In this document: in pieces, positions 2,051 through 27,376 of the stretch | Position numbering within the stretch: position 1 is the stretch's first letter | How the letters are laid out: each line of letters starts with the position of its first letter | Source of the DNA: Phoronis australis | Taxonomy: Eukaryota; Animalia; Phoronida | Assembly: GCA_002633005.1 (NCBI GenBank) | Contig: NMRA01000112.1 | Span: 893,202 to 946,169, forward strand | Length of the DNA stretch: 52,968 nt | Direction of reading: 5' to 3' | Made by a program: the position numbers and the translations under genes | Notes under the pieces: model-generated | The model's input: the letters and a program-made list of their open reading frames with translations, nothing else | Told to the model about the DNA's origin: nothing | The model's database searches: none

Positions 2051-2095
2051 ATGTGTTCCGCGAAGTTCTACGTTATCTTTCTTCTTCTCCAAGTG
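2051..2095 (+). CDS. Host gene coding exon 1: signal peptide (MCSAKFYVIFLLLQV)
   Basis: CAAAC-ATG start context, 15 codons with a hydrophobic core, GTG|GTGAGT donor in phase 0. Joined to 5426 it gives MCSAKFYVIFLLLQVNCCHG|TQ, a plausible signal-peptidase site. Confidence 0.8.
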
Positions 2096-3288
2096 GTGAG
2101 TATTACAATGTTTGTTGGTGACTTTCCACCCGTGTCCAGGACCAGTTCGTTATACACGTATTACTGATACATGTATTTTCCTTCATAACAAAAGAGGACT
2201 TCAGTGAAGCAATTCATTCTTTATCAGGGTACACATGTCCCTAACTCCCTTTGTTTTTGTTTCATTCCCAGAACTTTTATGTTCACTAATGTTACTACAT
2301 GTACGTCTTATTGAGCCTTCTTTGAACAAAGTCTGTACAGAGGGTTACGAACCTTTGTAAGTGTTGGCGAAATTACAGGTTTACAAACCATGTGTAAAGT
2401 CTACCGTTCAGGAAATTCTTAAAATGCCGTCACAGTCACAGATTTATGGTATTTGCTAACTGATACAATATTTGAATACAAGTTCTATCTACAGTACCTA
2501 TCCATATACTGAATTCCAATCAGAAGATAGTTGGGGCTTAAAACATCATCATGCTCACCCAAACTTGAGTTATTGACGAATGAGCCAATGTCTCTTATTA
2601 CAAGCAATAACTACATGCACTATTTTCAAATTGATAATTTTAGAGTTCGCCATCCCCAATCAACGTTATACACTGTAGCCTTTTCCTCAGTCGCTGATTT
2701 ATTGACTGTTCTCGTTGGTAACTGGAATAATAAAGTCGCCCCCTTGCTGCACAATTTCAATTCGTCAACAACACTAAGATACTTACAGTATCAATGCAAA
2801 CCACTATCACTTTTCTTAATGACACAAGTTCCTGTTCTTGACAAACTGTATCTAAAGCTAACAATAGTCTTTACAGTCTAACTGGTGGGTCAGCACAATC
2901 GCCCATATGATCGACACATAAATTACCTTCACATCGGTTCTTTACATGTACATGTAGATTGGGGGCTAAGTAAAATAGAAGTGGCATGCGTCCCTGCAAT
3001 TAATGAGGAGTTCTATCAAATGCTTTTAGAAAAATCAATGCAAGTACAATAAAAGTGATGGCATTTTAAGATACATATTAATATTCTGAACCCTGAAGTA
3101 AATGCCTTTATAGAAATATCAGAATTGTTTTGTATCGTCTATAACCTCTAAGTTGTGTTTATAAGTCTGTACAAGTTGCGATATTTTCTTTTGACACAAG
3201 TTGTATTAATTATTCCACCAAGGGGGTTGCGATTTTAAATCTTCCGTTTTTAGATTGAACTCCGACTAGTTTCTGAGACCACATCTCG

Positions 3289-4828
3289 CCCGGGTGAGAA
3301 TTTGACACGTTTGACACGCTCTAAAAACGTGGAGTATTGGAACGACCTAAAAACGTGTCGAACGTGTAAAACGTGGCGTGTTAAACGTGTAAAATGTAGC
3401 GTGTCAAACGTGTCAAGAACGTGTCAAAAACGTGTAATTTTCGTTCCAATACTCCACGCGTGTCAAACGTGGCGATAAACGTGTAAAACGTGGCGATAGC
3501 GTGTCGAACGTGGTGTGCCAAAACGTGGCAAAACTTGGCACTTTTGACACGCTAGCGTGTCGAACGTGGCAATAAGCGTGTAAAACGTGGTGATAGCGTG
3601 TCGAATGTGGGTTGCCAAAACGTGGCAAAAACATGGCACTTTTGACACCCTAGCGTGTCAAACGTGGCGCTTTTGACACGCTAGCCTGTAATCTGTGTCA
3701 TTGCCATGGTAGCGACCCTACATGTAGCCTGAGGCCGTGTACAAGCCATAATGTTCTTGTTTATAGCAGCTCACCATCCACCATGAGAATCCATACTGAA
3801 AGCAAATGTATAAAGGGATTTCTTCTTTAGTCACTGTTTATAGTTACTGTTGATGTAAATAATCCAAAATGTGCTAATGATATAGAATCATTAAATGGAT
3901 AATGTAACTATCCAACTCTTACCACATACTGTTGTCACTAAATTTCATTACATCTAGAATAAAATTAACACAGAAATAAGAAAATGGTTCAACATACAAG
4001 TTTGAAGTGCTTAAGCTGCTATATATATGCATATAAGTCTAAGCTTTTGAGACAGGCCAGTTGCTTGAAGACAGTTTATGAAGTAAAGAACAGACGCACT
4101 TTGTAACATCTTTGAATTACCAAGAGAGATTCAACATTTATCATAGCATTGAGTTCATGTTGATTTTGCAGCTCAAACCTCTACACACAATGTCTTATCC
4201 TCATTCAAGCTGACACAAAATGTGAGTTGATCTAATAATAACAATTATGAATTGATATACTTCTGAAGATGAGAGGCGTTCCAACTTCATATATTAACTG
4301 CATAGTCAACAGTTTCTACTGACTCTTGTTTTCTGTTACAATCAAACTTTCCTGTAAAAAGAAGGACCATTTGCAAGAAAAGTTTATCAAGCTACTGTCA
4401 ATCAGAGTATACACATACTAAACTTCTGTTAGAGCTGCACCACACTCGAAAACCACACTTCATAAGTGCTCTCCTGACACGACTGCACTCTCTGACAGCT
4501 AAACCAACTCTAACTCAGTATTTGGATATTTGAATAGGCAGTGAAAACTTTTGTGGCAAACTCTTTGATGTTATTAAGGGAACATGTTTAATCATTCAAA
4601 TTGGGTGATTACCTCCTAGTGGCCTTTTCAGAACTGCCAAGCCTATTTAAATTGTATCTTTATTGAAGAGTTCTATCATATTTTACACGTTTGACACGCT
4701 AGCGTGTCATGTTTTTACACGTTTTACACGTTAACGTGGCAATTTTGCACGTATTACACGTTTTTTTACACGTTTGACACGTTTGACACGCTCAAAAGCG
4801 TGTCAAACGTGTAAAATTCTCACCCGGG
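3289..4828. mobile_element. Non-autonomous DNA transposon, CMC/EnSpm-like, with dense subterminal ACACGT/AAACGTG repeats
   Basis: About 30-bp TIR CCCGGGTGAGAATTT(G/T)ACACGTTTGACACGCT at both ends. Repeat arrays at 3300-3690 and 4680-4815. Flanks CG/TG are compatible with a deaminated 2-bp TSD. The superfamily is an inference. Confidence 0.75.
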
Positions 4829-5425
4829 TGATGCTGGGCATTTGAGCAAATTAGGTACTTTTTATACTGCTTCGTCTAACGATTTGTTTAAATTAATAAA
4901 GGCATGTGTCAGGAAAATCACGTAAACAGTAAAAATGCAAGCATTTTCCTATAAGCAGGGATATTGTCAGCCGACCATACTATTTCCTCATGTGAGTTAA
5001 CACTTGACCAAGATTCATTCGGGTACCTGAGATCAAAGAAGCATCAAGAGAAAGCTAATCAGACACATAAAATTTATCCACCTTAAACTTAATATTTTAT
5101 GTTTGTAGAAATCTGTTCGTAATACTTGTACATCCTTCCCCCAACAGTTAGTTTGTCAATAACAAACTTAAACAAATCGTTATTAATTATTCGTCGTTAT
5201 TTAGATTAACGCGCCGACCTATTGAAATACATCATTGAGAATAAACTACAATTTACTACGCACACTGTACATGTAACTGAAACGAAGCGAAAATGTTTGT
5301 CATTTAAAAATCTTTGTTGCAATGTTAACCTTGTACATGTATATCTCAACCCAGGTCCTCTACGACTTTTTTCTCGGTCAAATAAATACGTATCTTAATT
5401 CTTTTTAATAAAATAGAAATTTCAG

Positions 5426-5589
5426 AATTGTTGTCATGGAACCCAAATCGGTAAAAAGAAGTCATTGGGTGTGGAAGGGACATTCTACAACCTCGAGTCT
5501 AAGCACCCCGGAGTGTACCGGTTTGCTGCACACATAACTGCCAACGTGAACGACGTGACCACTCCGTCAGCACTGATTCTTAAGTGCGG
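5426..5589 (+). CDS. Host gene exon 2: first half of a divergent C1q/TNF-like region
   Basis: TTTCAG acceptor, GG|GTAAAT donor, 164 nt, phase 0 to 2, open frame NCCHGTQIGKKKSLGVEGTFYNLESKHPGVYRFAAHITANVNDVTTPSALILKCG. PGVYRFAAHI resembles the C1q PGVYYFxYH strand. Confidence 0.75.
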
Positions 5590-6389: not shown

Positions 6390-6634
6390 ACTTAATGTGA
6401 ATATAAAAACGGAACCGTCAGGATTCAAGCACGCAGAAATCATTTCGAAGAAGTATGATGTAGGCGCGGGAGACGAAATTCGCCACATATTCATCTTCTC
6501 TATGGCCAACGAATATCAGGAATTTGTTAGAAAAATCAAGTGCACGAGTCAACTGAAGACGACCGACACCATGGGACTCTCTGTTGAAACTATAGATCTG
6601 GCCGATCAACAGTTTGTTGGATTGAAACAGACAA
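6390..6634 (+). CDS. Host gene exon 3: second half of the C1q/TNF-like region
   Basis: TTTCAG acceptor, A|GTAAGG donor, 245 nt, phase 2 to 1, inside ORF 6358-6684. VGAGDEIRHIF resembles the LxxGDxV motif of C1q/TNF jelly-rolls. Confidence 0.75.
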
Positions 6635-7098
6635 GTAAGGGGTCGACTTATAATCTGAAATCACCGCTTTTTGTTCTGTCATAAACTTCCTGTCATTTAA
6701 TGTAAAGGTGTTTTAATGATTTGTGATTTGAACATTTACTCACTTACTTGCTATAAAGATTACAAAGATTTTTTAAAACGCAAACTTGGCAATACTGTAC
6801 CTTCTACTCACTTTATGCGGAATGAGTTCACTTTTCGACGAGTGCAATAAACGTTTGAGTGTAATGGAGAAGAGGTCTATGAAAGAAGATAAATCACCAG
6901 TTCGAAATTTCATCATTCCGCAAAGTAAATAAAACCCCTGTCTTGTTGGATGCAAATATACTGTTTGAAATGCCTCATGAAGATATTCAACAAGTGATCA
7001 TTTGGTTTATAAAATCTATTGAGGTCACTCGAGTAAAATCAGTTTTCTGTCTTCAAAAAGATGACGTGACCCCTTTCTTTTTCTTCATTTTCGTCTAG

Positions 7099-7137
7099 AT
7101 TCCAAGGTGACCCCAGTGATTCCGCTTGCAACGAAGA
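7099..7137 (+). CDS. Host gene micro-exon copy 1 (NSKVTPVIPLATK)
   Basis: Long pyrimidine tract plus TAG acceptor, A|GTGAGT donor, 39 nt, symmetric phase 1-1. Confidence 0.75.
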
Positions 7138-7609
7138 GTGAGTTATTTTTAGATATATATGCGCTCACGAAATTGCATTCTAAGCACAGAGAAGTGATTT
7201 CTTGTGATGGTGTAATAGAGAGATTGCCCAGATGTATTAGTTTATTGGAACAAGCAGGTGTTTGAACTACCATGGATTGTCCATGGTAGAGCAGTAGGAA
7301 GCCGTCATGTCTCCATCTCTGGCGTTGGAGAGACAGTGACTCCGTTCCTTCTCATTTATCTATTTCAGAAATAATGATTTTTTGTAAAGAAATCTTTTAG
7401 TTACGGACGATGGTGCATATCACTTATAAGTACGAGTCTTGATGTTACTCTTTCCTTTGCATTCAAAATTTCGTAACCTTGGTTTCTGTTTCTGTTTCTG
7501 TTTCTGTTATTTCACTATTGGTTTTAAGTACTTTTGAAAAGTTGGCGGGATTTCCGTGGAATTTCATTGCATAGAGTCGCATTTGAGTGAGTACCCATCT
7601 TTAATCCGA

Positions 7610-7682
7610 GGCACTTACTACAGAGGACATTTTAGGTGATGGTAAAGCACTTACTACAGAGGACATTTTAGGTGATGGTAAA
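7610..7682 (+). repeat. Perfect 36-bp tandem duplication
   Basis: GCACTTACTACAGAGGACATTTTAGGTGATGGTAAA occurs twice. The paralogous unit 2 has a single copy near 9160. Confidence 0.9.
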
Positions 7683-8649
7683 CCACCAAACGGAAAAGCT
7701 AACTAAAATCCATCCTAAATAGAATTAAATTTGCAAATATTTGTTTAGAGTTGTGCTGAATGAGCAGTATTCGAGTGAACTAGCATTGCTCACTTTAAGT
7801 TTTTGAGTAAAGTGAGCGGAATGTGTGTCTTTAAAGAGGCAACAAATTCGTGTTAAGTACAGGGAGCTAAATTTAGATTTAGACCTCCTACTAATATAAA
7901 GTTGGCCCTTACTTTGATGAGAAGTAAATTATGTGTTTAAATAGAACTTAAAGCAGCTTGTTATGTTGTAAGACCTTGGTTCAGCGCCTTAACGGCCCGC
8001 CGTGACAATTAGTTAATTTGCAGTTTCCGTTCTTAAGTAATAACAAACGTTAAAATCATTCCAAGCGGGACAAATCAACAATTATTTTGACTGATGAATT
8101 ATTTAATCTGAATTCGTTAAAGGTGGTAAAGTAAACGTATGTCCGTAGTTTGTGAAGGTTGGCGAGTTTGTAACCGTTTTAATCTGACGACGAATTCAAC
8201 CTCCACTCAGCCGCCATAGTGAATTTAGAGTCACTTTGTCCCAATACTTTTGACTCCCACTGTATATCTATGATTGAGGGCGTCATAACAGTTGATATAA
8301 AAGCGCTGTAGTGATTTGTGATTTTGACATAACTGATTAATTTGCTACATAGAGAACGCACGTGAAATTGGTAATACCTGATACTGCATTTGATGAGGAG
8401 TGGATTCCCTTGGTGGTGCGTTCAAGTGCATAAAACTGCTTGGAGCTAAATGGGGCACTGACCAGTTCGAAAATTCTGCATTTCCATCAAATAAATCGAA
8501 CTTTTATCTTGTTGGTTTACAAGTGTCATATTCAGATTGCCCAATGCAGTTGTCAGTCGGTGATTATTTGGTTTATAAAGTCTACTGAGGTTACTCAAAG
8601 TCGGTCGTAGAGTGACGTGCCTCCATCTTTCTTCTTCAGTTTCTTCTAA

Positions 8650-8688
8650 ATTCCAATGTGACTCCAGTAGTTCCGGTTGAAACGAAGA
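8650..8688 (+). pseudogene. Micro-exon copy 2 (NSNVTPVVPVETK) with mutated acceptor, probably skipped
   Basis: Paralogous to 7099-7137 and 10384-10422. Donor GTGAGC is retained, but the acceptor reads TAA instead of TAG. The nearest upstream AG (8638-8639) shifts the frame into a stop. Confidence 0.65.
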
Positions 8689-10383
8689 GTGAGCTATTCT
8701 TAATTGTGCATGCGAACTTGATATCATTTATACTTGTCTAAGCTCAGAGAAGAGATTTCTTGTGATGATGCAATAGAAAACAAAACCAGTGGAGAATTCC
8801 CAGACGTATTGGTTCTATGGGAAAATTCATGTGTCTGAATTACAATGGGTTATCCACGGTTGAGCCGTTGGAAGAGGACGTTTCTCCTTCCTTGACGTTA
8901 TGGAGATAGTGTCTCCGCCACTACTTATGAAACTTCTTCAGAAAACTGAATTATTTTGTAAAAAACTTTTACTTACAGCCGTTGATGTCTATCATTTACG
9001 AGTACGAGTCCTGACGTAACTTGGTCCTTTGCACTCGACATGTCGTATCTTTGTCTTATTTTACTATTATTTACAACACTTTATAAGTGGGCGGAATTTC
9101 AGTAAAAACTTTTTTGTATGGGGCGGCAGTTGAGTGAGTACCCATGATTCAAACGTGTCACTTACTACGGAGGCCATTTTAAGTGATGGAATACCACCAA
9201 CAAACTCATAATAAATTCAGTTAAATTTGAAAATATTTGTTTGTAGTTCTGTTTAATGAGCATTATTTTGACATAAGTTTCTACTGAACTAACAAGAATT
9301 GCATTCTCCTTATGAAGTTTTCAACTAAAATGAGGCGGAAAGGGTATCTTTAAACCTTTAAAAAATTCACGTTGCGTCAAAGAAACTTAATTTCGATTTA
9401 GACCACTTAACATTGGAACCTATTTAAATGAGAGCTAATTTCTGAGTTTTCGAAGAATTTTATGCTGAAAATCATGTTCAGCACATAAACGGACACACCG
9501 TGACTGGACAACTTGCCAAGTCCGATCTCAGATAATAACAGACGTCATTCCAAGAAAAAACGTCAACTATTATTTTGACTGAGGAGTTTTTAGAGAGTAA
9601 TTTCATCAAAGATAGTGAATATTCGTAAATTTTCAGTTGATGATCGCTTTAAATTTGGTGTTTTCGTGTGTTTTTATTCAGTCTTAATAGTTTCATACGA
9701 TTGTTAAACTGAGTTGACGATATAATCTACAATAGGTATAGGTTCCACTCATTTTCGTGACACGACAGCAAACTCAATGCACAGCTATAATGACTGCTAA
9801 TTACTATTGTGGCCTAGCGACCTCACTAACTTCCCTGTAAATTTCCATTCATTTTGGGTCATGGGGGAAGTCTACTTTGGTGACGAATTCGACTTCCCGC
9901 CATTTTGTCTGAAATCTTTGGCGTTTACTGTACATGTATATGTACATGTACATGTACATGTACATGTATGATTGATTGCTTCTCTTCATTTATGTAAATG
10001 TGCTATAATTACATGTATCTAACTCGCTATAGTGAAATCACACATTTTTCAAAATCTGCAGTAGGTAATACCTGCTAATACAATTGATAAGGGATGGGTT
10101 TAGTCTGCGGTGCGTGCAAGTAAAGGCTTGGAACTGATTCAAGAACATGATCGTGGAATTACAAAAGTCATTTGTTCGAAAATTCATCATTCCTTAATGT
10201 TCGTCAAACTGCTCTCCTGCTGGTTGGTAAAAGAGATCTTTTAAATGCTTCATGCAAATTGTCAACAATTGGTTATTTTGTTGACACAATCTACTAAGAT
10301 TTCTCACCCTAAATCGATTTTATCGTCATATAGAGGATCTTAGAGTGACGTGACTCACATTTATTTCTCTTCCTTTCTTTTAG

Positions 10384-10422
10384 ATTCCGATGTGACACCA
10401 GTGGTCTCAGTTTCAACGAAGA
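10384..10422 (+). CDS. Host gene micro-exon copy 3 (NSDVTPVVSVSTK)
   Basis: Pyrimidine tract plus TAG acceptor, A|GTGAGT donor, 39 nt, phase 1-1. Confidence 0.75.
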
Positions 10423-11010
10423 GTGAGTTATTCTTAATTTCGCATGCGAACATGAAAACGTTTAAACTTGTCTAAGCTCTAAGAAGATATTTCATGGGAC
10501 GATGGGACAGAAGACGAAAACAGTGGATATTTCCCAGATGTATTATGGTTCTGTGGGCGCATGTATGCGCCTGAACTACGATGGGTTCCCTAGGACTGTC
10601 CAGTGGGAGATGGGCGTTTTTCCGTCAATGACTTTGGGAAGGGAGTGGCATCTTTATTATGACTTAATGTAAATATATTTTTACTTTACAGGCGCTGGTG
10701 GCTATCCTGTACTAGGAACCTTAAAGCTACTGTTTCCTTGCATACAACAATTCCTAAATAACTGTTGTAGAACATTCGAGACAATAGCTCTTCATTTACT
10801 CCTGATAATTGTAATCAAACCTAAACATTTACTTATTTTATGTTGATGAAGCAACCATGACCCCAATAGTTGCTTTAGACATGCATGTCTTCCTGATTTG
10901 CACAATTCTCCTGAAAACTCGAAAAAAAATAACAGAATAGTATTACCTCCGGCCTTGCTACTAAACGTGAAGTTTACAACTTCTGCAATGATAATTGCGT
11001 GTTTTCGTAG

Positions 11011-11185
11011 GACAAGTGATTAAAGGGACGTTAGAGATAACTGGCAATATGGACTGGACGGAGGAAATGAAAGATCGAAACTCAGATGCTTTTAAGAACG
11101 CCAGCGAAGCGATCAAGAATAACGTGAAAAAGTCTGTTGAGAACGAAAACACGAAATCATTGGAAGTAGAAGTAACCAAATTAAG
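11011..11185 (+). CDS. Host gene exon: SEA domain, N-terminal part
   Basis: TTTTCGTAG acceptor, AG|GTATT donor, 175 nt, phase 1 to 2. IKGTLEITGNMDWTEEMKDRNSDAFK fits the SEA pattern (beta strand, W/FxxxLxDxxSxxF). Confidence 0.88.
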
Positions 11186-11446
11186 GTATTAAAATAGCGT
11201 ACGCCTAGTATAGACTTGAAAACTCGGTTCTAAGGAAGATTTAGAATGAAGGCGTGTTTTTCCTCCATGCTCACTCTTCAAATCAGAAGGCATTTAGACA
11301 CACTGATAAGAGGCTTCGTGGTGGCAAAAGCTGTTCTGGACATCTTTCCATGTCCAGTCAATTCTTTGGTTCCATTTTGAAGAAAACATCACATCACATC
11401 ACAAGCAAAAGCTTAATTGACATCGTTTGTTAGACCGAACTACATA

Positions 11447-11879
11447 CTGGGTTTTTCCGTAGATAAGCCTGTGGACGAGTATCCGAAAGTGAAAAATTTC
11501 GGACGCGTTGGTAACACCAAATAAACACTCCTGCGTTTAATCGAAAAGGAGGACGTGTAAACGGAAAGTCAAAGGCTTCATGACTTTGACATTTCACTTA
11601 AAAGTGTGTTTTTAAATTTTATGTTAATAAACGCATAGTTCTCCAGCTCTGCGTTTGTTTAATACATGTATATGGTAAATACACCACAAAACTGAATTTG
11701 TTGCTAAAAGTTGACACTTAGTGGGCTTTTAAAAGGAAATTTTCCAAATAAATGCCACACTATCTGAGGACTTGACACCAGAAAGTGTTACACCAAATAA
11801 ACACCTTTGTTCGGTATAATTTTCCGAATAAACGCCCATGGGCATTTGATCGGGTGAGCTTATCTACAGAACACCCCGG
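11447..11879. mobile_element. Tc1/mariner-pogo type MITE
   Basis: TA flanks. TIRs CTGGGTTTTTCCGTAGATAAGC and GCTTATCTACAGAACACCCCGG. Internal AATAAAC(A/G)C repeats. Confidence 0.7.
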
Positions 11880-12220
11880 TATGCGATAGTTTGTGGTGTC
11901 CATATTTTCAAAGGAAAATCAACACTTCAAGTGAGTCGGGATTCATTTCTTCTAGCATCACGTGATGCCAAATATAATGGGTCGGTATCCCTCAGGGTCC
12001 AGTTGTTTTTTATCCACCATCATCTAATCCAAACCTGTTACGCGCCGATTTTAAAGAGAGTCGGACGCAGACCGGATCCACCTATCATCGCACAGCTGAA
12101 GCGCAAAGCAATTATGCATTCCCCCTCAAACATTTATTCGGCAATGAGTAAAAGACGTAAAGGGAGATGTGGCAATAATTAAAAACCAAGTGATCGTTTA
12201 TTTTGTTTTTCTTTCTCCAG

Positions 12221-12390
12221 TAAAGGATCTGTGGTGGCAGATTTTTACGTCAAGGTGAAACCGAAGGATGACGTTGAAGAAGGAGCCGCTCTGGCAGAAG
12301 TCAAAGTGGCACTTTGGTCCACCATAGAAACTGGACAAGTTGGCGAATTGGTTGTTTCTAGGTTCAATTCGTCTCTCAGGTTGCATGATG
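12221..12390 (+). CDS. Host gene exon: SEA domain, C-terminal part with G/SVV motif
   Basis: Strong pyrimidine tract plus CAG, G|GTATGT donor, 170 nt, phase 2 to 1. The splice junction reads VTKLSKGSVVADFYV. Confidence 0.88.
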
Positions 12391-12809
12391 GTATGTTACG
12401 TCCCCGTAGCCAGAGCATGGGTGGTGCATTATAGGGGGGGGGGGCAATAGCCTCACTTTTTTCAGTGCTCCACCGCCCATTCTGGCGAAGAGTATTACGT
12501 TCTAACCATCTTGTTATGCCTTAAAATAAATCCAAATTAGGAGTTGTTAACGTCTGAGGCTTGATGTGTTAATTAATGAGACATAATGGTTTTAGGACGT
12601 AGGAAAAGACTATCTGAAGTTATTAATTTTGACCAGTTCTAGAAAACAACACAATCCGTTGTGTTTTGTGATTTCATGGGTAACTGGTTATTTACCGTAA
12701 AGGGGTTATAGGATATTGGCATTTGATTAGCATTGTACAACATAATAACTTGTTAAATATTTGGAACGTAAAACCACTCCGTGCTCAGCTATGCGTACAA
12801 AGATATATA

Positions 12810-15438: not shown

Positions 15439-15573
15439 ACTTGCAGACACCGTGGAGCACGTGGTCTTCTTGCTCTGAGGCTTGCGGTGGAGGGGCTCAA
15501 ACCAGGACTCGGTTGGATGAATCTGGGGACCCGAAGAAGGAAACCCAAAGTTGCAATGAAGAGACTTGTCCAG
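15439..15573 (+). CDS. Host gene exon: thrombospondin type-1 repeat 1
   Basis: TAG acceptor, CAG|GTAATT donor, 135 nt, phase 1-1. DLQTPWSTWSSCSEACGGGAQTRTRLDESGDPKKETQSCNEETCP. Confidence 0.92.
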
Positions 15574-15707
15574 GTAATTATTCATATTTGTTCATTTCAA
15601 ATTTTGTGTTTGACCAGTGATTAGTCTACCGATAATTTTATTAATTGAAAGGTACGCACAAACCACAGTGCAGTGCAAAAAATCAGAATCAAACCACTGC
15701 CACTTAA

Positions 15708-17404
15708 AGGAGCATGCCACCCAAAAACCAACCTAATTTGTATCAATTTAGATCGAGTAGTTCTACTCCATAACGCCTGGTACGGTTGCGTTACCTTACA
15801 CCTGACGGCAGACGGAGGTGTTGAAATTATCCAATGACGTCATCGGTTTCACAAGCAGTCTGTTCAGCAGTTCACAACACGGGTTACTGGTGTCTGCTTA
15901 TCGCTTGAAGTCATCGTTTAACACCAGTAAATCATCAAACTTCGATGTAAAACCCTTAAAAATACACCGAGTTCTCATAAAAACGTGTTGTTTTATTTCG
16001 CTCTTACGGATTTATTGGTATTTGGACACACCGTAGCCTACAAAGTTCGCCAGGCCAATAAGGTCCGTAGCAGGAGTTTGGGGTCTGTTCGGAGATAATT
16101 TCGAAGTATTTTCCGTGAGATACAGACAGGAAAACCTAGATCTGTGTTGTTTAGACTTGTGATTTTTTGAGTTCTACACACAAAACGCTTGTTATCCTGG
16201 CCAGTGGCTCGGAGCCCGATCAGGCCCGTTTTGGTCGGCCGGGGATTGACTCGTTATCCCGGTCAGTGGCTCGGAAACTGATCAGACATCACGAACATAA
16301 GCCAGCCAAAGTTGAGTGGAAACTAAACTTCCAGTCTAGAAAATACTACACTAGTGAGCCAAAGCAATGTGCACCTTATTATGTTGGTGAATTAGCCACG
16401 AAATTGCAAATCTACTTACTCGTCGCCGGGGGGCCGCGAATTCAGGTTTCGCTTTGGCCACAGCACCGTCAGGGCAGAAGTTGTACATTGACAATCATTA
16501 TTTGAGTAATGTAAATGTAAATAAAGATTCCCCTAACCCCTGGCCGTGGGATGGAAATCGAGTTGTTTCACAACAGTTTTTGCCAGCAAGCACTTAATTA
16601 GCATGAGCTCACTCGGCCGCGGTGTCCCGTCAATTAGTTTTATTGCACCTAAAGCCGGTAACGCAGTGATTTATTCATTGCTGGCTTCTCAAATCATTTG
16701 CACTCACGAACACACCAAAGGTATAATTACAAATTACATCTAATGAGACAGGCTTTGTTTCAGTTTTATGTAAGTATTTCTTAGGGTGAGAATAATTTAT
16801 TTTGAAACAGAACGCTCAGTAATAATCGCCAACATGACAACTCGCAATCCCGACGTAGGACAAGCTAGAGCTCACCAGTCCCGCCTTCGCACGTGGATCG
16901 TTAAGTTTTACAGGCTATCAATTCGAACAGGAATACAGAGATGAAGAAATACTAGAGAGGCGCCGTGAACAAGCTCAGACAACGGAACGTATGGAGTTAT
17001 TTGGTAAGCCGGCATTCGTCAGGCACTGTCGACGTCTGCAGGCCACAGATGTTTCACGGCCTCATACATGTACATGTACTTGCGATTTACAACTTGCATT
17101 TCATTCTTCACTACCCTGAGCCACTTCCTAAGCATTTCGGACTCTCGAGGAAGAAAAAAAAACGATATACCCGCTTTCCTCGCAGCTGCTTAGTTCGTAC
17201 AAGCGGGAACGATGCACCGCAATACAGCTGCATTCACCCTGAGAATGAACCACTGACATCGCTGCGTCGTTTCTCACCTTCCTCACAGGTTAACGAGACA
17301 CCTCTTGGCAAGGTAAGGTCGACCGTACACTGTATGCGAGGCGACGTGGATATAGACAGATTAAGACTACAAAAAAGACTAATTAAATCGAGTGGCATTC
17401 TCCT
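15708..17404 (-). mobile_element. Kolobok-like non-autonomous DNA transposon with THAP-domain relic
   Basis: TTAA on both sides. TIR AGGAGCATGCCAC / GTGGCATTCTCCT (12 of 13 match). The minus strand at about 17230-17075 reads RCIVPACTN*...GISFFFLPRESEMLRKWLRVV, a THAP pattern with an in-frame stop. Confidence 0.8.
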
Positions 17405-18376
17405 TTAAGTAGTTGACTATTTTTTAATTTTTGTCCCAAACCTTTGTGACACACTACATGCTCTATGTTTTAGCGAAGCTTCCTTAAAATATCAATTTTG
17501 GTATCCCAAATACATAACAGTCTGGTTTGAGGTTAATTCCATAAGGAACTGAATGCCACAACTTGTAAAATGACTGATCTACTTCTAACATTGTTTTGCT
17601 TAAAATTTCGAAACTGCGTTGTAATCGCATTTCATACAAAAATGTGCTCAAAACCACCAACTTTTAAATCAATATAATGTTTTTCTTTTAATTTGAAGAA
17701 ATGCGAGGCGGCAGATCTCTTGATCATATAGCTAATTCGTAATACTTAATCTGTACATTTGGTTGAATCAAGGTCTCACGTGCGAAGTCTCGTTTTGAAG
17801 TATCTTCGCGCAAAGAGTCAGTGACAGCTATGAATGAGCAAGGTTGACGATCACAAATTGAGCATAGTGCTTAAAACTTAAATAATACTGTAATTTTAAG
17901 ACTATGTACTGTTTTGAACCATAGCTGAAGTTACCCCTACATAATTGCCTTATTCAAGTGTTTTCTCGGTTGTGTTGCTCTAACCATAGGCTACAACTGT
18001 TCAAGTGGAAGTGGGTAGGTACGAGAAAACGGAATATTATAAAAAATTGTGTTTGATTTACAATGACGGTCTTTACTAGGATGAATACCACTTCCTGATG
18101 ATTTGCATAGGATATTACATGTATGAATCTAGGTCAAGTTTCATGAAAGAAGTCCAATGGGTGCACCCAACTCAAGACTTCTGTATACGCCTGCTAGCTA
18201 ATCCAGATATTTCTGTTGTTAAATATGTGTATTCTGTCCTTGAAAGAAGAGAACACCTCTTAAATGGGTTACGTGTGGAAATGTGCCTGTTTATTTTTTG
18301 TTTATGGTACTTTGGGCCGGAGGCCCTTAATGCAAATAAACGTATGATGATTCACGCTCCCCTACACGTTTTATAG

Positions 18377-18514
18377 ACCAGTGGACACAATGGAGTGCGT
18401 GGTCCAATTGCTCCAAGGTTTGCGGTGAAGGCAATCGAACCAGAACTCGTTCAAATGAGAATGCAACTGTTCAGGACAATCAGACGGTATCTTGTAATGA
18501 CCAGCCTTGCGTTG
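18377..18514 (+). CDS. Host gene exon: thrombospondin type-1 repeat 2
   Basis: TTTTATAG acceptor, G|GTAAGT donor, 138 nt, phase 1-1. DQWTQWSAWSNCSKVCGEGNRTRTRSNENATVQDNQTVSCNDQPCV. Confidence 0.92.
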
Positions 18515-18689
18515 GTAAGTCTTTGCAAATGTGTGTGTCTATTATGTTTTGACATTGATTTTACACCTATACATGTAGTTAGCGTGGTTTTGTGTTAACC
18601 TGGATCGCGTTATTGAGAAGAGATATTTCAAGTTCCGAACTAAGGCAAGTTAGAGGTTATCAAAGACGTCAGTGTACACATTTTTTGAA

Positions 18690-19600
18690 TGATTTTATTA
18701 ATCAAAGCGGGATTCAACAATTGGTCGGATTTCAAAACCCGCTGACTGGACTGCAAAGCCGAATGGCTGGTGTTCTAACTTGGTGGTCGGACCCAAAAAA
18801 CGGGTTTGCCGGTACCTCAGAACAAGATGGCCACACCTCAGAAACTGATTGACCGGACCTAAAACAGTTAGCCGATGTTCAAAAACAATGGCCGAACACA
18901 TCGCCGATTTTGGGCAAAACACACAGACGGGTACGAAAAATAAACACTGGATGTCACTTAAATCCTTCAAGACATTCAAATCAATTCTCAGAGCAAGTCC
19001 GGCTGTCGTGTTTGATCACTGGCCAACTGGTTATAGCAGCTGCCATCGTGGTTTGGGTACATCCAACTAGTTTTTAGATAAGGCCGTTTTGAAGTTCGGA
19101 CAACACATTTCATCACCGGAACGTTGACACTGATGGTCTCATCGGCATGCTCAGTTGTTTTATTGTATATTCGCCTTTCTACTTTAGAAGAATGTTCTTT
19201 GATCCCCCAAATGTACTGCAATAGTGTAAGAAGTCTTCTTTGCGAGATAGCTAGAACATTATACACCAATTCCTGTCAGGAGTAGCATATCCTGGGAAAG
19301 CATCTTTTCCCGGATAGGGTTTTGTGCAGTAGGTCTGAAGTAGAGTTTCACATCGTGTGGCCTAGTCACCTTTAGTAGTAACTTGAAGACGGTCTTGATA
19401 TAGGGACGGCTACGGATGGCTTTTGGAAGTCTGTATGGCGCTGTCGCTCGATGTGTTGAAGGGTTATGTCCCAACTCTCATAATCTTTGGCATTCATAGT
19501 GATGTGTATATAATCGATCTCCTTCTGGTGATCTGGTGACATAGTTTTCCGCTCTACAGAGAAGAGCGTGAGTAGCATATTGTCTGTGCTTTGTTGGATG
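18690..19600 (-). mobile_element. Decayed Penelope-like retroelement 3' part (RT thumb, linker, GIY-YIG region)
   Basis: Frameshifted peptides in PLE order: LLTLFSVERKTMSPDHQKEIDYIHITMNAKDYESW; VPYIK...RPHDVKLYFRP; GVVYNV; TTEHADET; PNHDG. Boundaries are approximate. Confidence 0.65.
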
Positions 19601-19805
19601 ATTCGAGCGACATTTCAAATACAGCAATCTTCATTGACATGTAACACATTCTAAGGAAATGGAAGTTTAGGCTAAAAGAGGGCATTCTGATCTTAATGCC
19701 ACTTATTTGGAGACCTGCACTCACCCAATTGAAGGAAAAGTAAAACAACGCTTACTCTAAAACCAGACGCCGTATTGAACAAACCACTGAATGAATCTCT
19801 TGCCG

Positions 19806-21855
19806 TAAATTCTTAGTAATCGTCCTCTGTTTAACACTGCTACATGTACTCCACGCTTTAATATTTTGAAGTAAATATTGTCGTCTTTACCACCGGCAAA
19901 CTAATTTACCGGATTATTGCTGGATTGGACTGACTTCTTGAAGTTTTAAGCTTTGACGAGAGCTACATGTATGTATGCAGCAACGAATTTTAATGGCCGT
20001 TCCGCAAGAAAATCAAAGGAAATCAACAAATCACACTAGGGGACATCCTCCAGATTCAGCTTAAACTTTGTGTATGTGGTTCAGGTACAAAAATCACCAA
20101 ATTTGCACTTATTGACATAAGTATTAGGTGTTCATGCATTTACATGTACACTTATAATGCTCTTTTTATTGCTGTCTTCACAGTAAACGGCAACTGGACA
20201 GAATGGAAGTTCTTGAAGAATTGCACTGTAACATGTACAGAAGACGGGAATCGTATGCAAGAATATCGCCAATGTACAAACCCGGCTCCTCAGAATAATG
20301 GGTCGCAGTGCACCGGCGAAAATATCAGAGGCTGTAAAACGGAAGATTGTCTTGGTAGGAGTGTCCTATATAATTACCCAAATCAAATACGCGTCAAATT
20401 TTCATTCACCTGTCAAGAGATGACTAATCAGAATTGTGGAAAGTACACATATGAACGCTTATCACAAAACCTTTGAGACCTCCTTCTCCGGGAGGCGTTT
20501 TGCAGCGCACTTTCAAGTGTGTGGATATTAAATTGCGTATAATTTTGACAATTAAAACTGCATTAATTTTAAGTTATTTTTTTCAAAACTTTATTTTGAA
20601 AATGAGGTCGCTTCTTCCAAAACACGATTGCGTTCCTATAACGTAAGACAGTATCAGGGCCGTAACCATGAAAATAATAGTTCAACACACATGTAGCAGT
20701 GGTGGCGCCTAACTTCTTTAGGCGTCGCTATGGGGTTCCCGGCCCTCTAAACGCCCTAATTTAGCGTATAAAGTCATTTTGTCAGTCAAACATTTCTGAG
20801 AAAGTATTGTACCTCTGTCCGCAAAATATCATCATTTCCTTATAGAAAAGGAGCTTCGCGGTATCCCTGTAATAACATTGTCTTTTTAGCTGATTTGGAC
20901 CAATTTTGATCCTGCACAACCAGTTGGGTATTCGATACCTGTGATATCCTACCACAAAGCTCCTTCCGATGTCCCTGAATGAGCTGAGCCAAAGTTTTGG
21001 AACGTGGGGCGACAAATGTGAAGCGGTCGGTTTCTTTTAGTTGTTTCTGGGCTTTTGCTGTGGTTGGCAGTCGCACATGGCATAAAATGGCCGTCTCGGT
21101 GGAGTCGAGCCAGAGTGAGGATGCGTTTTGTTATGCCTTCTCACGGGCAGCGCTATAGCCCCACACTTTCAGTGCTGCGCTGCCCTTGGTCTATGGGCGG
21201 TGCACTACGGTGGACTGGGGGTCTATGGGCTCCACATTTTTAAGTGTTTCGCCGCCCATGGTTCATGCCACTTGTGAAATAGAAAATATGCAAAATATTT
21301 AAATGATTAATTCACTCAATAAGATAAGTACAGGTAATTTTCTGTCATTTAGACTGCGCACCAAGTAATAGCTCTCCTCTCACCAGCAGGAAGTGAAACC
21401 GTGATTAGTGATCAATGTTTAAAGCAAGCTATTGCTCTTTTTACGTTCTACTTGTATACCAACTAGCCTGTAAAATTGAACCTTCAATGCTCAGTGCATA
21501 TGGCGACGATTGAGCAGTGGCTGACGTATAGGAACGTGCTTTCCTTGGATACGTCAAAGCAAGTGGATGCCATAAATTCTTAGTAATCGCCCTCAGTGTA
21601 ACACGTGCTACTCCACGCAAGTACATTTTGAAGGATTATTGTCGTCTTTACCATCGCGAACTTATTTATCGGATTATGGCTGGATGGAAAAGACTCGTTG
21701 AAGTTCTTTAAGTTAGCTTTGACCAGAGCTACATGTATGTAGAAGATAAAAAATAATCATACTAGGGGTCATATTCTAGATTCAGCTTAAACTTTGTGTG
21801 TGTGATTATGGTGTGGTTATGGTACAAAAATCACCAAAATTTGCGCTTATTGACA
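19806..21855 (+). repeat. Pair of diverged about 300-bp direct repeats (about 19806-20117 and 21572-21855) on either side of TSP1 exon 3
   Basis: Shared TAAATTCTTAGTAATCG, TTGTCGTCTTTACCA, AGATTCAGCTTAAACTTTGTGT, GGTACAAAAATCACCAAA and CTTATTGACA. Confidence 0.85.
20184..20354 (+). CDS. Host gene exon: thrombospondin type-1 repeat 3
   Basis: CTTCACAG acceptor, G|GTAGGA donor, 171 nt, phase 1-1. VNGNWTEW...CTVTC...RQCTNPAPQNNGSQCTG...CKTEDCL. Confidence 0.93.
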
Positions 21856-23499
21856 ACTTAGTTTTTTACCTATAGGCTTTTTAAAGTGGTCGAACCCAGA
21901 ATTAATATTTCACTTTAAAGACAAAAACCTACATCACAGGAACGGCATCAATGTCAGAAATACAAAAATGAAATAAAAAATCAAAATCGCATGGTGCAAT
22001 CACAGGTTATCGCTATTTATGTGTCAAAATTTGACTTCATTTCGTGATATCGCTTTTTTGATTCCAAAGTCAACTTCTATTCAAGGTACATGCATGATTA
22101 TTCGTCACGACAGGGCAAATATTTTTTCTAAATTCTATGCACAAAATGTGCTTTTGATGCATGTTTTGCAAATAGTTACTTTCTACTTCCAGATATATCA
22201 AAGCAACGGAATGTGGAAAATCTTACTTCAATTACAGAAATAGGTTATGAATTGTGAAGCTTATTCCAACCCTTCTATTATCCCGCTAGTCGAAAATTTC
22301 AAAGTACTCAGTCGCCATGACAACAATATGATGCAAGTCTACTTTCAAACTTAACGTTAGCTTGGTTCACTCTTCATGGCTGAAAATATCCAAAGTACAT
22401 TCTACATGTAAGATACTTACTTTGGCAAAGGAGTGTTAGGATCAATTTGGTTTGCGTACTTATTTGTACTGAGATCACTTTGTTACATACAGGTGTAAGC
22501 GTTAGCCACAATGGAAATTTTGAAACCTGTGCGTCCAACATTTTAAGAGATGCAGTTTAGCTCTGCTAGGATGCGACATCAACTGAGAAAATCATATTTG
22601 GGTGGAATCGGTTAAACGATTAGCATCCTGTAAAAATGACAAAACTCAGATTATGTGACTCTATATACATGTACAGTGCTGTAGTGGTAAAATTTGAGGT
22701 AAGCAGGCGCCCAAAGCCAACCGTATCACCTTGAGCACTGACCGTACGGTGTAACCTACGGTGTATAGGCGTTACGTTCAAATGCTAAAAGGTGGCACTG
22801 TTTAAATATCGTATGTTATGATTATCTGGAATTAAGATGGACGTTACAGGAGGAAGTGGCCATAGCCCCCTTAAAATTTTCTCAAATTCCATGTGGCTGT
22901 TCGGGGGTGCGAATATCTGAAGGGCAAAATCCTTGCTAATACTCTGCCCTGGCCTCCCTAACACCATATCCTGGATACGCCTGTGGGCACCAGTTAGCAG
23001 CTGACTGGGGGGGGGGCACAGGTTAGACTCACGAACGGTTTCCAAAGTGCTAAAACTGTCAATAGTGTGTCAGCACAAGTTACAATCATTCGAAAACAAG
23101 CATGTAAAGAATATTTAGTTTTTTTGAAAATTTCGTAAGACGTGGAAAACAAAAATTACGCTGGAGTTCAGCGGCGTGGGTTCGACATTTCGATATTACT
23201 CAAAATTCATAAACAGGTATAATTAGAAAATATCGTAACAGAATTAGACTAATGTGACTTACTAGTTGGTTACACGTGACGGATGAAATGCATGAATTAA
23301 ATTGTCTATGTTCCTTGCTCCGGGATTTCATCAATCAACATCGGGGCCATAGCTTATACATGTATGTGTAAGGAATGGAAGAGAATGTTGGTGTTTGTAA
23401 TTATGTAAAACTTGTGTTGTATCGCTGCGGGATTTTTTGGTTCACGTACTTGTAGCTAAGTTCGGGCAATATGTCTGTTCCGTTGATATTTATAACCCT

Positions 23500-24381
23500 G
23501 TGACCTAGATTCCAAACTTGGTTGACCTATTTTTTCAAAGCAGTGAATGCCACGTAGCAAATATTTTTTTCACAATTAATACATTTATTACAAAAGACAA
23601 ATACATATACAAATATACACACAACACAAAACAACACAACAACGTACAGAGCTGTGCATAAAAATAACGAGAAAGCATTTCATTGTCACTTCGAAGTTAA
23701 AAAGTACTGATGAAGTGTTGTTGATAATGTATCATAAACCAAGGAATATTCTTATGCCTCACTTGATTAATTCATACCTGATTCAATTGGAGCTTCCAGT
23801 CCACTGAAACTGGGTGTGTCTGTAAACAATGAAACGATTTTTTTCTCAGCCTCCTCCATGGGTTTGGGGCGAGAGCCTCCTCCCGTTTTCTTCACCTCTC
23901 TTTGCAGTTGGTTCTTTGAGGCTCTCGCCCCAGACACCATGTGCCTCCACTTTTCCTTTGTGTCATACGCTGTTCTGTTTGCTGTTCCCAGACTTGTGAT
24001 TTTGGAAGCTATATCTTTCCAAACAGAGTTCTTTTCGGCCTTCGTCACTTTCTGGCTGAACTTGCTGTTAATTACTTGCAAATTCGACTCGGCAAGTTCA
24101 GTCTCAAGGTTGATTTCGTGCTTTGTCCAATTACAAGATCTTTTCTTTTCAGCCATTTTGTCTGTGCCATGGTAACACGAATTATGGGTATTGCCTTATA
24201 TGGAATCCAATTTGGCTATCCATCGTATAACATAGATATCCGCCGGATAGTTATCCGAACCTTATCCAAGCTTTGTGCACCCAAATTTATACGCCGGGTA
24301 ACTATCCGGCGTATAAAACTTATCCGGCGTATAAGCTGTTATCCGCCGAATAGTAATACAGACTTTTATGCAACCAGGCCC
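23500..24381 (-). mobile_element. PIF/Harbinger transposon fragment (one end plus the Myb gene)
   Basis: Terminus GGGCCTGGTTGCATAAAA on the minus strand from 24381 and subterminal TATCCGGCG/CGCCGGATA repeats at 24237-24350. The other end and a transposase were not identified, so the left boundary is a guess. Confidence 0.65.
23778..24156 (-). CDS. Myb/SANT-like DNA-binding protein exon (NAIF1/MSANTD-like), PIF/Harbinger accessory ORF
   Basis: MAEKKRSCNWTKHE...KNSVWKDIASKITSLGTANRT...KEKW...KKTGGG is the characteristic Harbinger Myb/SANT signature. It ends at a CAG|GTATGA donor. Confidence 0.85.
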
Positions 24382-24885
24382 AGATTCTCACCAGAAGAAA
24401 AAATACACAATTGACGTAAACAATTATGAGATTACTGACAATGCAGTTACAGATGTGATCGACTGTAATCACTTATAAGAGATCTAGTTTTATCATACAT
24501 AGTGGATGAAAAGGCCGTGTGCTATCACACATTGAAATACCTCAAAACTACAAATTAAGGTAAAAACATTGTTTTAAATTTACAAACACAAGCAACCTAA
24601 ACGATACCGCATTTGACCAATTAGTTATGAATGAGTTGTTGCTATGATAAACACGAAAATCATATCCTCTGTGTCTTAACCGTGTTGTCATTTAGTCAGT
24701 GTAAGCAAATAAAATCATTTATAGTTATAAAAAGCTTTATATTACGATAAATCATCAATTAATTCAATAAAATTATCCTAGTAATTCTCATCTTTAACAC
24801 GTCTTGTTTTGATAGTCTGGTGCCGGTCCGGTACTGCGGTATTACAAGTAGCAGAAGGGTATTTACCAGATAATTTGTCATTTAA

Positions 24886-26190
24886 AAGGGGCCTGAAGTA
24901 AAGTATAAAGGTTGGTTACTGGCATACACATATTCCTGAACAGTGCATAGTATTTTTCTTTTTTACTTTGAAAATTAAAAAATTATTAGTTCCATAACGC
25001 CCCACTGCGAGCGCTGTTTTTCGTGACGTCACTGAAGCTGTACAGCACAAAGAGATACATGTATAAAGGTCATTAGCCGTGCGAGTACGTAGTCTAGTCG
25101 AGAGATCAACACGTGCATGCTCACAATTTTTTTCAATTTTCTTTCCTGTGACGTTGATTCCTCGCGGGGCCTAGCCAGCCAGATAGCCGTGTATGAAGAC
25201 TATCTTCAAAATACAGCAAGGCACCAGTAGCATTGTGTGTTGAGCTCCGTTGGACTCCGAAGTTTCACATAGCGCGGACAGAGTTCTGCTCGTCACCTTG
25301 TCGCGAAATTTATATCAACGTGTAGAGCTACATGTATAAACCGGCAGGGGAGCGTGCTAATATTTGAGTGTCAAACGACTCTCACCTTGCCCGCTGGAGC
25401 CGTTTAAATGAAAACCAATCTAGTACACGTTATATCGGTATCTCATAATTATCGGGCTTTTGTGACGAAGAAAACAGTACGCACGTCGGTGCAAGGACCG
25501 TTGTATACATAACGTAGAATTGTCGTGAGGACTTGACAGGGACTCAGGGGTCTCACACTCCGCTGATTTATCCACATTATTTTGGAAACGCTTTGCCCAG
25601 TCACACATTGTGTGTCATAAAAGAGATAAGCATACCTGCAGCTGACGTGGCAAGTAGAGGTACTCTCGTTTGTCACATTGGTGTAGACTCGAAGTTGAAC
25701 AGTGGTTTTCTGTTGACCCCAGACCGTCCGGAGTTGCACCATATATCAACTCCGGAAAGTCTCTCACGACGATTCAGCGTTATGTTTAGTATATGCAGCT
25801 TGCACCAAGGCAAGGCTACGCAGTCGGGGGCTCATTCCTAGCTGCCGGGTGCCGAGAACGGCATTGTTCCACTAATAGTCAACACTACACGGCAGTAAAC
25901 TTGTATTATGATTTTTGAGAGCCGAGATCGCAGATGGATTAAACACTTTAAGCACAGTTCTGTGGTAACCGAGAGGCACTCAACCAATGAGCTACATGTA
26001 TACACTGAATAAGCTTAATTTATCTCATTTCCTTCACCCCCTGTACAGCCTTAGTGACGTCAGACGCCCGTTAGCCAATGGTAATTAAGATTAGTAAAAA
26101 TATTTTTTTACAAAAATGTGATTTATTATATAGACTTTATTCATAAATTAAATTACATCAAAATGCATGTTATTATACTTCAGGAACCTT
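24886..26190. mobile_element. Second Kolobok-like TTAA-flanked element
   Basis: TTAA at 24882-24885 and 26191-26194. TIR AAGGGGCCTGAAGTA / TACTTCAGGAACCTT (13 of 15 match). Subterminal inverted GTGACGTCACT motif near 25025 and 26055. Confidence 0.7.
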
Positions 26191-26897
26191 TTAATGTCAA
26201 GTTTGTTCCGTATAACGACTAGTTTATAATTGCTGCTATTTTTCATGCAATAAAAACATACTTTATCAGTTCAAATTTCTTCGCAATTCCGCAACGACAT
26301 ATAAACAGATTCTGCCGCTTAGCCCTCTGAAGCTCTGTGTAAATGCGCGTTAAAACTTAGTTCGCGCGATATGTATGACAGATACTTCACCTGAGTTTAA
26401 ATCGGCTTGCATGTCACGTATCGAGATATAATAACACATAGTTTTCATCGCGTGAGTTGTATAACATATATCTATCAAGAGGAATCTATCTGGACTCAAC
26501 AATCTGACTTCAAACGTGATGAGTGTTCACGAGTGTTTTAACGTTTTGCAGATGTTCCATTGTTTATAAGTGTTTTTAATACTGCGCATGCTCATATGTC
26601 ACGTCAGAGTAAGTGGAAATATAGGGTCGATATCGTTAAAGTAAAAGAAGGGCGTTGTTATTATTTTGTTAATCGTGTTTCATCGTAAATCGTTTTTAAT
26701 AATAAGAATTTAGTTGTGCACCATCGGCACAATGAGGGTGGTTACAAATTCAGCACGGCCTAGCAAAGAATTGTAGAAAGCGCAACACAACCTGTTGGGC
26801 ACTGAGGTACATGTATGCACCGGCTGCCATGTATGCGAAATCATTCTTTGAGGAAATATATACATGTTTGAATAAATAGCGAGTTTTGTAATTTCAG

Positions 26898-27376
26898 CTC
26901 ATACTCCTTTTGTCTTGCCTTCAGCTCCGCATAGCTTATTGAAAGCGGGATATTTGAAAAAGATACATGAATGGCTTCCTGGCAAGCACTTCCACTTAGA
27001 CTATAACTCTTCTGTGAAGGGAAGCTCTTTAGAGGACAGCTTCAAAGTAACAAACCCCAAACTACTAGTTGGAGTAGACGATAAAGACGGCAAGGTATTC
27101 GGTGTATATACCAAGAAGAACTTGTCTGAGGATATAGCAAGTGATCAGGATGCATTCATATTCCGTTTTGCCTCAGTGTGCAGCACAGATTACTGCCCAG
27201 GACAACGGTTTGTGGCACAAAGCAACTCAACCGAAACCAATGAGACTGCATCCAACTCATCGTCACTGCTTTTGGCAACGCTGATGCAATGTAAGAACGT
27301 TTCTGAATTTGGTATGCCTCAAAACATGAGCTGTTCCGGCCAATGGGCTGCTGGCGAAGCTTACCTAGTTGACTGA
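26898..27376 (+). CDS. Host gene terminal exon: TLDc-like domain
   Basis: TTTCAG acceptor in phase 1, open to TGA at 27374-27376. SLLK...KIHEWLPGKHFHLDYNSSVKGSS...KLLVGVDDKDGKVFGVYT...DQDAFIFRF follows the TLDc motif order (WLP; LLYxxSxDGxS; GxxFGxY; DxxxFLF). Linkage to the TSP1 exons is inferred from phase and proximity. Confidence 0.78.

Follow-up and report, generated by a model that had tools for sequence, protein, structure and literature searches.

The DNA analyzed here, referred to as the window, is a stretch of 52,968 nucleotides (nt) of contig NMRA01000112.1 from Phoronis australis, with a G+C content of about 39%, slight CpG depletion, long introns and many repeats. On its forward strand (2051-27376) it carries a gene model for a mosaic protein, the last exon of which (exon 11) has the features of a very divergent TLDc domain. 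The reading favoured here, with some reserve, is that a single gene encodes a secreted and N-glycosylated mosaic protein of adhesion or recognition, in which the diverged TLDc domain would be the C-terminal binding tip and not a regulator of the V-ATPase. The rebuilt model (Table 1) joins 11 exons into 1800 nt and 599 amino acids (aa) with no internal stop over about 25 kb, as had been proposed in an earlier reading made from the letters alone (the sequence-only reading). All ten introns are of the GT-AG type, with phases 0, 2, 1, 1, 1, 2, 1, 1, 1 and 1, and phase-1 introns flank the module exons. An alternative in-phase acceptor for exon 11 is present at 26925, and its use would make the protein 9 aa shorter.

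Table 1. Features of the gene model, with their positions in the window
Feature	Position	Strand	Description
Exon 1	2051-2095	+	Start codon (A at -3), predicted signal peptide MCSAKFYVIFLLLQV; donor GTGAGT, phase 0
Exon 2	5426-5589	+	First part of N-terminal domain of about 136 aa, possibly C1q/TNF-like; PGVYRF motif
Exon 3	6390-6634	+	N-terminal domain, second part; GDEI motif; 109-aa open frame
Exon 4	7099-7137	+	39-nt linker mini-exon, copy 1 of triplicated intron-exon block
Mini-exon copy 2	8650-8688	+	Acceptor AA in place of AG; probably skipped
Exon 5	10384-10422	+	Linker mini-exon, copy 3
Exon 6	11011-11185	+	SEA, first half; Pfam PF01390 E-value 1.2e-5, slightly below cut-off
Exon 7	12221-12390	+	SEA, second half, opening with GSVV (G238); no Pfam match alone
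Exon 8	15439-15573	+	TSP1 repeat 1, short type, WxxW, 4 Cys; PF00090 E-value 1.2e-7
Exon 9	18377-18514	+	TSP1 repeat 2, short type, 4 Cys; PF00090 E-value 3e-8
Exon 10	20184-20354	+	TSP1 repeat 3, 6 Cys; PF00090 E-value 1.4e-5; phase-1 donor GTAGGA
Exon 11	26898-27376	+	Divergent TLDc in one exon; 4 Cys, 7 N-glycosylation sequons, stop codon
AATAAA	27782-27787	+	First one 3' of the stop; candidate polyadenylation signal

The N-terminus (MCSAKFYVIFLLLQV) is the most hydrophobic stretch of the 599-aa chain, and exon 1 likely encodes a signal peptide cleaved near G20/T21, as judged by eye from hydropathy and pattern. No transmembrane segment was found, the best 19-residue hydropathy window past residue 25 averaging only 0.87. 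Both the signal peptide and the lack of an obvious transmembrane segment had been claimed in the sequence-only reading and both hold, the signal peptide as a prediction. Membrane anchoring of the protein was rejected, as there is no transmembrane segment and the last beta strand forms the C-terminus.

A C1q-like identity had also been proposed for the N-terminal domain encoded by exons 2 and 3, and this was not confirmed. Searched singly, neither exon gave a Pfam match, and exon 3 gave none in the ESM Atlas either. In the PDB, exon 2 matched adiponectin only, over 24 residues with an E-value of 1.6 against a single domain and of 5.8e-6 against a three-copy adiponectin construct; exon 3 had two matches, both with E-values above 1. 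The spacing of the PGVYRF and GDEI motifs is one which we take to fit the C1q pattern, and the domain is possibly C1q/TNF-like. The linker that follows was earlier called mucin-like, which is an overstatement. It consists of 26 aa from two 13-aa mini-exons, and serine and threonine make up 22% of residues 140-180 (29% with proline included). A mucin (Pro/Thr/Ser, PTS) domain was rejected, the linker being short with no long tandem tract rich in these residues. The mini-exon is part of an intron-exon block present in three copies (68-76% identity) at 6896-10635, in the middle one of which the AG acceptor is gone.

The remaining modules ahead of exon 11 agree with what had been read from the letters, and such SEA and TSP1 exons would by themselves suggest an animal source, probably invertebrate. 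Exon 6, which holds half of the SEA domain, scores 25.8 bits against the PF01390 cut-off of 26.4, and the GSVV at 238 is presumably the SEA self-cleavage motif. TSP1 repeats 1, 2 and 3 score 32.3, 34.2 and 25.6 bits, each above the PF00090 cut-off of 21.6, with repeats 1 and 2 having four cysteines rather than six. Other SEA/TSP1 mosaics that we take to resemble this gene are membrane mucins, adhesion receptors and proteins of the spondin/hemicentin types. Common to these and the gene are SEA with GSVV, TSP1 with WxxW and phase-1 module exons. In contrast to them, the gene has no transmembrane or glycosylphosphatidylinositol (GPI) anchor and no long mucin tract, it ends in TLDc, and no named orthologue of it was found.

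Exon 11 is likely a genuine, very divergent TLDc domain. The Pfam TLD profile (PF07534) matches it with 20.4 bits (E-value 5.1e-4, profile positions 4-94 of 170), which falls short of the gathering score of 24.5 bits, and its best sequence match in the PDB is zebrafish OXR2's TLDc domain (4ACJ, E-value 0.043). As a single sequence in the ESM Atlas it scored 0.96 with 208 of 256 features, and TLD was found in all 30 matches. An independent set of TLDc domains was obtained from a scan for a TLDc motif, which matched prokaryote contigs 119 times and viral contigs 27 times; 47 segments (46 loci) were retained by eye for a first profile. This scores exon 11 at 13.2 bits, the best of 2000 shuffles reaching 11.6, and ranks it top in a six-frame scan of the window. 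A second profile, built from 36 domains (18 from corals), scores it at 15.8 bits against 9.3 for the best of 2000 shuffles. The hhalign probability of exon 11 against TLDc is 87.5, and its identity to 38 TLDc domains is 13-25%.

The fold check on the last exon also led to TLDc. AlphaFold on a 39-row TLDc alignment gave a model with a predicted local distance difference test (pLDDT) score of 71.7, confident over the first 80 residues and the last strand. In VIA structure comparison of this model, all ten TLDc entries listed have a Z of 8.8-11.1 over 129-136 residues (root-mean-square deviation 2.8-3.5), while the best non-TLDc fold has a Z of 3.8. Foldseek ranks 1-15 are likewise all TLDc (TM-score 0.37-0.46), the top match being zebrafish OXR2. 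The earlier assignment of this exon to TLDc is borne out by the ESM Atlas matches, by both profiles and by the fold, with the qualification that the model is alignment-based and the fold match partly circular.

Seven of the eight asparagines of exon 11 lie in N-x-S/T sequons; all those listed in the sequence-only reading (NSS, NST, NET, NVS, NMS) are present, along with NLS. Seven sequons were reached in none of 100,000 whole-exon shuffles (mean 1.33), and local shuffles gave a P of 5e-5 to 3e-4 for the excess. Three of the sequons are carried by a S/T/N-rich insert which is of low confidence in the model, and with this insert removed 4 of 5 asparagines are still in sequons (P 8e-4). For comparison, the count for open reading frames (ORFs) of at least 80 aa in the window is 57 of 359. 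The test had been prompted by an earlier remark on the sequons and was hence not blind, though its margin is wide. Because of this excess the TLDc product points to the secretory pathway, and its passage through that pathway is supported at the level of sequence. Exon 11 lacks both an in-frame ATG before the TLDc domain and its own signal peptide, and an upstream secretory exon is therefore needed.

Characterized TLDc proteins are located in the cytosol, nucleus or mitochondria or on organelle surfaces and bind the V-ATPase, according to the available sections of PMC8608904, PMC13570293 and PMC5614904; those of bioRxiv 10.1101/2025.05.24.655954 and PMC8804929 also present TLDc proteins as intracellular and V-ATPase-binding, and the domain is treated in these papers as one that protects against stress. 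Within the same sections, interaction between proteins is given as the role of TLDc (PMC8608904), evidence for an enzymatic activity is said to be lacking (PMC5614904), and Oxr1 is described as contacting V1 subunits A, B and C and the EG stalk (PMC8804929). The word "secreted" does not occur in the available text of PMC8608904, nor "secret" or "extracellular" in that of PMC5614904. No literature on a secreted TLDc was found by title or by the start of the abstract, and supplementary proteome tables could list such proteins. The proteins OXR1/Oxr1p, NCOA7, TBC1D24/Skywalker, mEAK7, TLDC2 and Rtc5p (PF07534) have in common with exon 11 the fold, over 129-136 residues, and the position as C-terminal domain. 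They differ from it in that exon 11 follows a signal peptide, SEA and TSP1, has its seven sequons and four cysteines, and shows an identity of 16-20%.

Residues G482, S484 and G509 of exon 11 align with Oxr2 G673, S675 and G703 (4ACJ), which are G815, S817 and G845 of Ncoa7 (numbering as in the available part of PMC8608904). E594 lies five residues from the end, like E796 in 4ACJ, and the two ends align (model 152 to chain 801); it is probably the counterpart of E796 / Ncoa7 E938 in the last strand. For the Gly-rich bend (from Ncoa7 G896), which is needed for V-ATPase binding, there is no counterpart, no GG being present in 531-599, a region that aligns unreliably. The equivalents of Ncoa7 G815, S817, G845 and probably E938 could be taken to mean that the classical role is kept, the domain acting on the V-ATPase or as an antioxidant, either in a cytosolic isoform or at pumps that are luminal or in the plasma membrane. 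This is highly improbable. The V1 subunits bound by Oxr1 face the cytosol, sequon N477 stands five residues ahead of G482, the bend is missing and exon 11 has no ATG for a cytosolic isoform. The signal peptide, the extracellular modules and the sequon excess also argue against the protein reaching cytosolic V1, and on topology V-ATPase regulation by the exon 11 TLDc is unlikely.

Homologues of exon 11 were found neither among 457 candidates (longer proteins) nor among 28 candidates near its length, and there were none in metagenome, viral or prokaryote contigs or in plasmids. The searches made gave no second example of the SEA, three TSP1 and TLDc architecture. The earlier statement that an extracellular TLDc is an unfamiliar architecture stands for this exact combination; it does not stand for secreted-type TLDc in general, which is also present in corals and bacteria.

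With a 52-aa TLDc fragment of locus L073 as query, 711 proteins matched among 767 candidates. Among the 120 of these matches listed, at least six coral proteins join extracellular domains to TLD, the remainder being mostly short unnamed fragments. Three have EGF_CA with TLD (P0001 and P0003 of Pocillopora, P0004 of Oculina), each with a hydrophobic leader, and three have collagen and Ig with TLD (P0005 and P0094 of Porites, P0006 of Acropora). Their layout is a leader, EGF_CA and three TLDc copies, or collagen, Ig and TLDc, some having an N-terminal hydrophobic anchor, and they are annotated just as "uncharacterized" or "hemicentin-1-like". Like the Phoronis gene, they are animal mosaics with TLDc placed after extracellular modules. 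However, their partner domains are different, and they have the canonical FHxxC-x-xxGPT and TFGGG motifs, mostly in two to three copies, which are absent from exon 11. Sequon asparagines number 16 of 184 in the coral TLDc domains against the 7 of 8 in exon 11, and pairwise scores between exon 11 and the coral domains are at most 1 bit.

A tree of 66 rows unites the coral TLDc domains in one clade (100/99) and leaves exon 11 outside this clade, on a branch of 2.88 changes per column; the tree is without OXR1-type rows and, with so long a branch, the placement of exon 11 is unsure. Exon 11 has the TLDc fold, but should belong neither with the V-ATPase-binding TLDc proteins nor with the coral group. 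The tree also pairs exon 11 with the TLDc of a viral contig (L139; 94/76, unstarred), with 19.3 bits as the best pairwise score, and this pairing was not taken to indicate a transfer. The very long branch and low identity, the missing Gly-rich bend and the insert with its three sequons would suit a real fusion in which TLDc is a degenerate structural cap or a scaffold for glycans and lacks a specific ligand, the work being done by the N-terminal domain, SEA and TSP1. We consider this unlikely, given that the core and last strand have a high pLDDT and that G482, S484, G509 and E594 match conserved TLDc positions; a fast-evolving recognition surface would presumably look divergent too.

In the prokaryote collection, a signal-peptide-like leader precedes TLDc in six of the 20 loci inspected by eye. 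All ten loci scanned pass the TLD cut-off and nine of them adjoin fn3, SprB, Ig-like, collagen, Stig1, NHL or C-type lectin domains. A few of the loci in the collection look like eukaryotic contamination in genome bins. The bacterial proteins (Bacteroidota L035, L046, L047, L074 and L077; Desulfatibacillum L020; Myxococcota L003, L012 and L069) are, like the product predicted here, exported or on the surface. Their TLDc domains have as neighbours collagen, fn3, Ig-like, SprB, C-type lectin or Cys-rich repeats, and they differ in having the canonical motifs and neither SEA nor TSP1; these proteins are uncharacterized. The Bacteroidota loci have a leader, TLDc and then fn3, SprB or Ig, those of Myxococcota combine as many as three TLDc copies with a C-type lectin or with Cys-rich Stig1 repeats, and the Desulfatibacillum locus has a leader, collagen and TLDc. 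Viral contigs (L121, L124, L126, L127, L133, L134, L135, L142, L144, L146) have a distinct TLDc subfamily in open frames of 270-310 aa, the L126 and L127 copies being in tandem on one contig. As a class, secreted-type TLDc proteins seem to sit in the databases undescribed.

Several observations weigh against the reading of a single secreted mosaic gene with a TLDc tip. The ESM Atlas recognition value of exon 11 is 1660, the tool trusting a high score from 2300. Residues 88-129 of the model are of low confidence, single-sequence AlphaFold reached a pLDDT of only 32, and the circularity mentioned above arises from the TLDc alignment on which the model rests. The surface glycine and serine important for V-ATPase binding by Ncoa7 are retained (G482, S484). 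No orthologue confirms the architecture, with no match to exon 11 at an E-value of 1e-3 or below among 1.84 billion representatives. The RNA sample consisted of three raw-read runs (X1-X3) of one study on the same species label, of each of which about 18-19% was read, and one contig set. In these, the modelled introns match none of the 15 joints listed (of 76) for 10000-29900; at 26650-28150 joints are absent, and the 18 loose ends listed (of 27) all lie away from the exon 11 acceptors. RNA depth over exon 11 is 0 in X1 as in X2, and X3 does not exceed a depth of 2, confined to part of the 5' third. There is also a phase-compatible, signal-peptide-like ATG-GT stretch within intron 10, at 24631-24700.

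The RNA signal on 10000-29900 is dominated by intronic repeats, and the X3 depth in the intron flanking exon 11 is similar to that in the exon itself. The gene is nearly silent in the three runs sampled and, because of this, the junction 20354-26898 is neither supported nor refuted; the RNA check of the splice between exons 10 and 11, on which the sequence-only reading depended, found no spanning read. RNA-deep repeats lie at 15700-17410, 22670-22750, 25190-25800 and 27413-27491 (intronic and 3'), with 90-95% identity or less. The repeat coverage is from copies expressed elsewhere in the genome and not from this locus. Near-zero RNA depth in the three runs would suit a silent or decaying locus, or an unexpressed TLDc copy inserted in phase by chance as exon 11, as would the dead acceptor in one mini-exon copy and the lack of relatives found. 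Against this are 1800 nt over 25 kb without a stop or frameshift, canonical splice sites and the sequon excess, which implies selection on a luminal product, and a gene restricted to some tissue or stage could escape three samples from a single study. Such a silent locus is very doubtful.

In favour of the fusion are phase 1 on either side of intron 10 (20354-26898), the exon 11 acceptor TTTCAG, which resembles the acceptors of exons 2 and 3, and the lack of any other recognizable terminal exon. From phase and context, exon 11 is quite probably spliced onto the third TSP1 exon. The alternative is that exon 11 is part of another, small gene or of an alternative transcript, with a signal-peptide exon in intron 10 (e.g., 24631-24700) giving a stand-alone secreted TLDc and the SEA-TSP1 gene ending elsewhere. 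The stretch at 24631-24700 reads as a hydrophobic 23-mer and has a phase-1 GTAAGC donor, the 6.5 kb of intron 10 contain transposon-like DNA, and no RNA joint was seen for the fusion. However, the start context of the stretch is poor (T at -3) and one such stretch is expected by chance, there being four in 18 kb of other introns and about 1.4 expected in intron 10. The SEA-TSP1 gene would then be left without a recognizable last exon. Among 41 acceptor candidates, 15 have at least 25 open phase-1 codons and, outside exon 11, none looks domain-like by eye, while a crude exon scan to 52968, which would also miss several of the modelled exons, found no more internal exons. A separate gene is improbable on these grounds.

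In the favoured reading of one secreted mosaic protein, the signal peptide would bring the chain into the endoplasmic reticulum, and the TLDc domain would acquire as many as seven N-glycans and perhaps two disulfides. The SEA domain possibly self-cleaves at G238/S239 with its halves remaining bound, as the halves of MUC1-type SEA domains do after self-cleavage. The TSP1 repeats would provide a rod able to bind matrix or glycans, and trimers may form through the N-terminal domain, should it be C1q/TNF-like. Because there is no transmembrane or GPI tail, the protein would end up free in mucus, matrix or body fluid. Of the mucus, shell-matrix and immune roles suggested in the sequence-only reading none stands out, and the analysis gave no sign that the animal has a shell. 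Proteins of this mosaic type usually carry a binding head where TLDc sits here, and the reading of TLDc as the tip is echoed by its position in the coral and bacterial extracellular proteins. The best guess for its ligand would be a surface protein or surface glycan of a cell or a microbe. TLDc was probably gained as a phase-1 terminal exon by exon shuffling, and its single exon would fit, as a hypothesis only, the capture of a processed copy. More tentatively, TLDc might be an extracellular binding module in bacteria and corals, comparable to a lectin or C1q head, the Phoronis gene being an independent recruitment in which an intron-free copy was captured as last exon and remodelled with seven glycans and new cysteines for an extracellular ligand; this we hold to be possible and not yet probable.

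The window also has a number of features outside the gene model. Within intron 10, on the reverse strand (23767-24195), there is an ORF for a Myb/SANT-like DNA-binding protein (PF13873, E-value 8e-12), which would probably derive from a Harbinger-type transposon. At 30063-35212 there are two broken copies of a non-LTR retrotransposon (weak RVT_1, zf-RVT), with 30153-31541 and 33763-35212 being 87% identical. A 600-bp inverted repeat (12804-14214, 86% identity) flanks a short tRNA-like repeat of SINE type near 13500, recognized by eye, the family of which is abundant in the RNA reads. ARAGORN and Rfam gave no tRNA gene or Rfam family in the window, this repeat included. A tandem 365-bp duplication (36653-37382, 98%) has N near its join, and an exact 152-bp duplicate (46648-46799 and 50372-50523) adjoins a gap of about 680 N; both are possible assembly artefacts.

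If TLDc does serve as an extracellular module, its intrinsic activity would become testable apart from the V-ATPase. A TLDc domain at a secreted tip must act otherwise, because V1 is not easily reachable from there, and the ligand of any secreted TLDc would bear on what the TLDc fold does alone. The coral families are the easier entry point, because the Phoronis gene is divergent and stands alone, and its junction is a predicted one. Together, the coral and bacterial cases and the gene described here point to an unstudied extracellular class of TLDc proteins.

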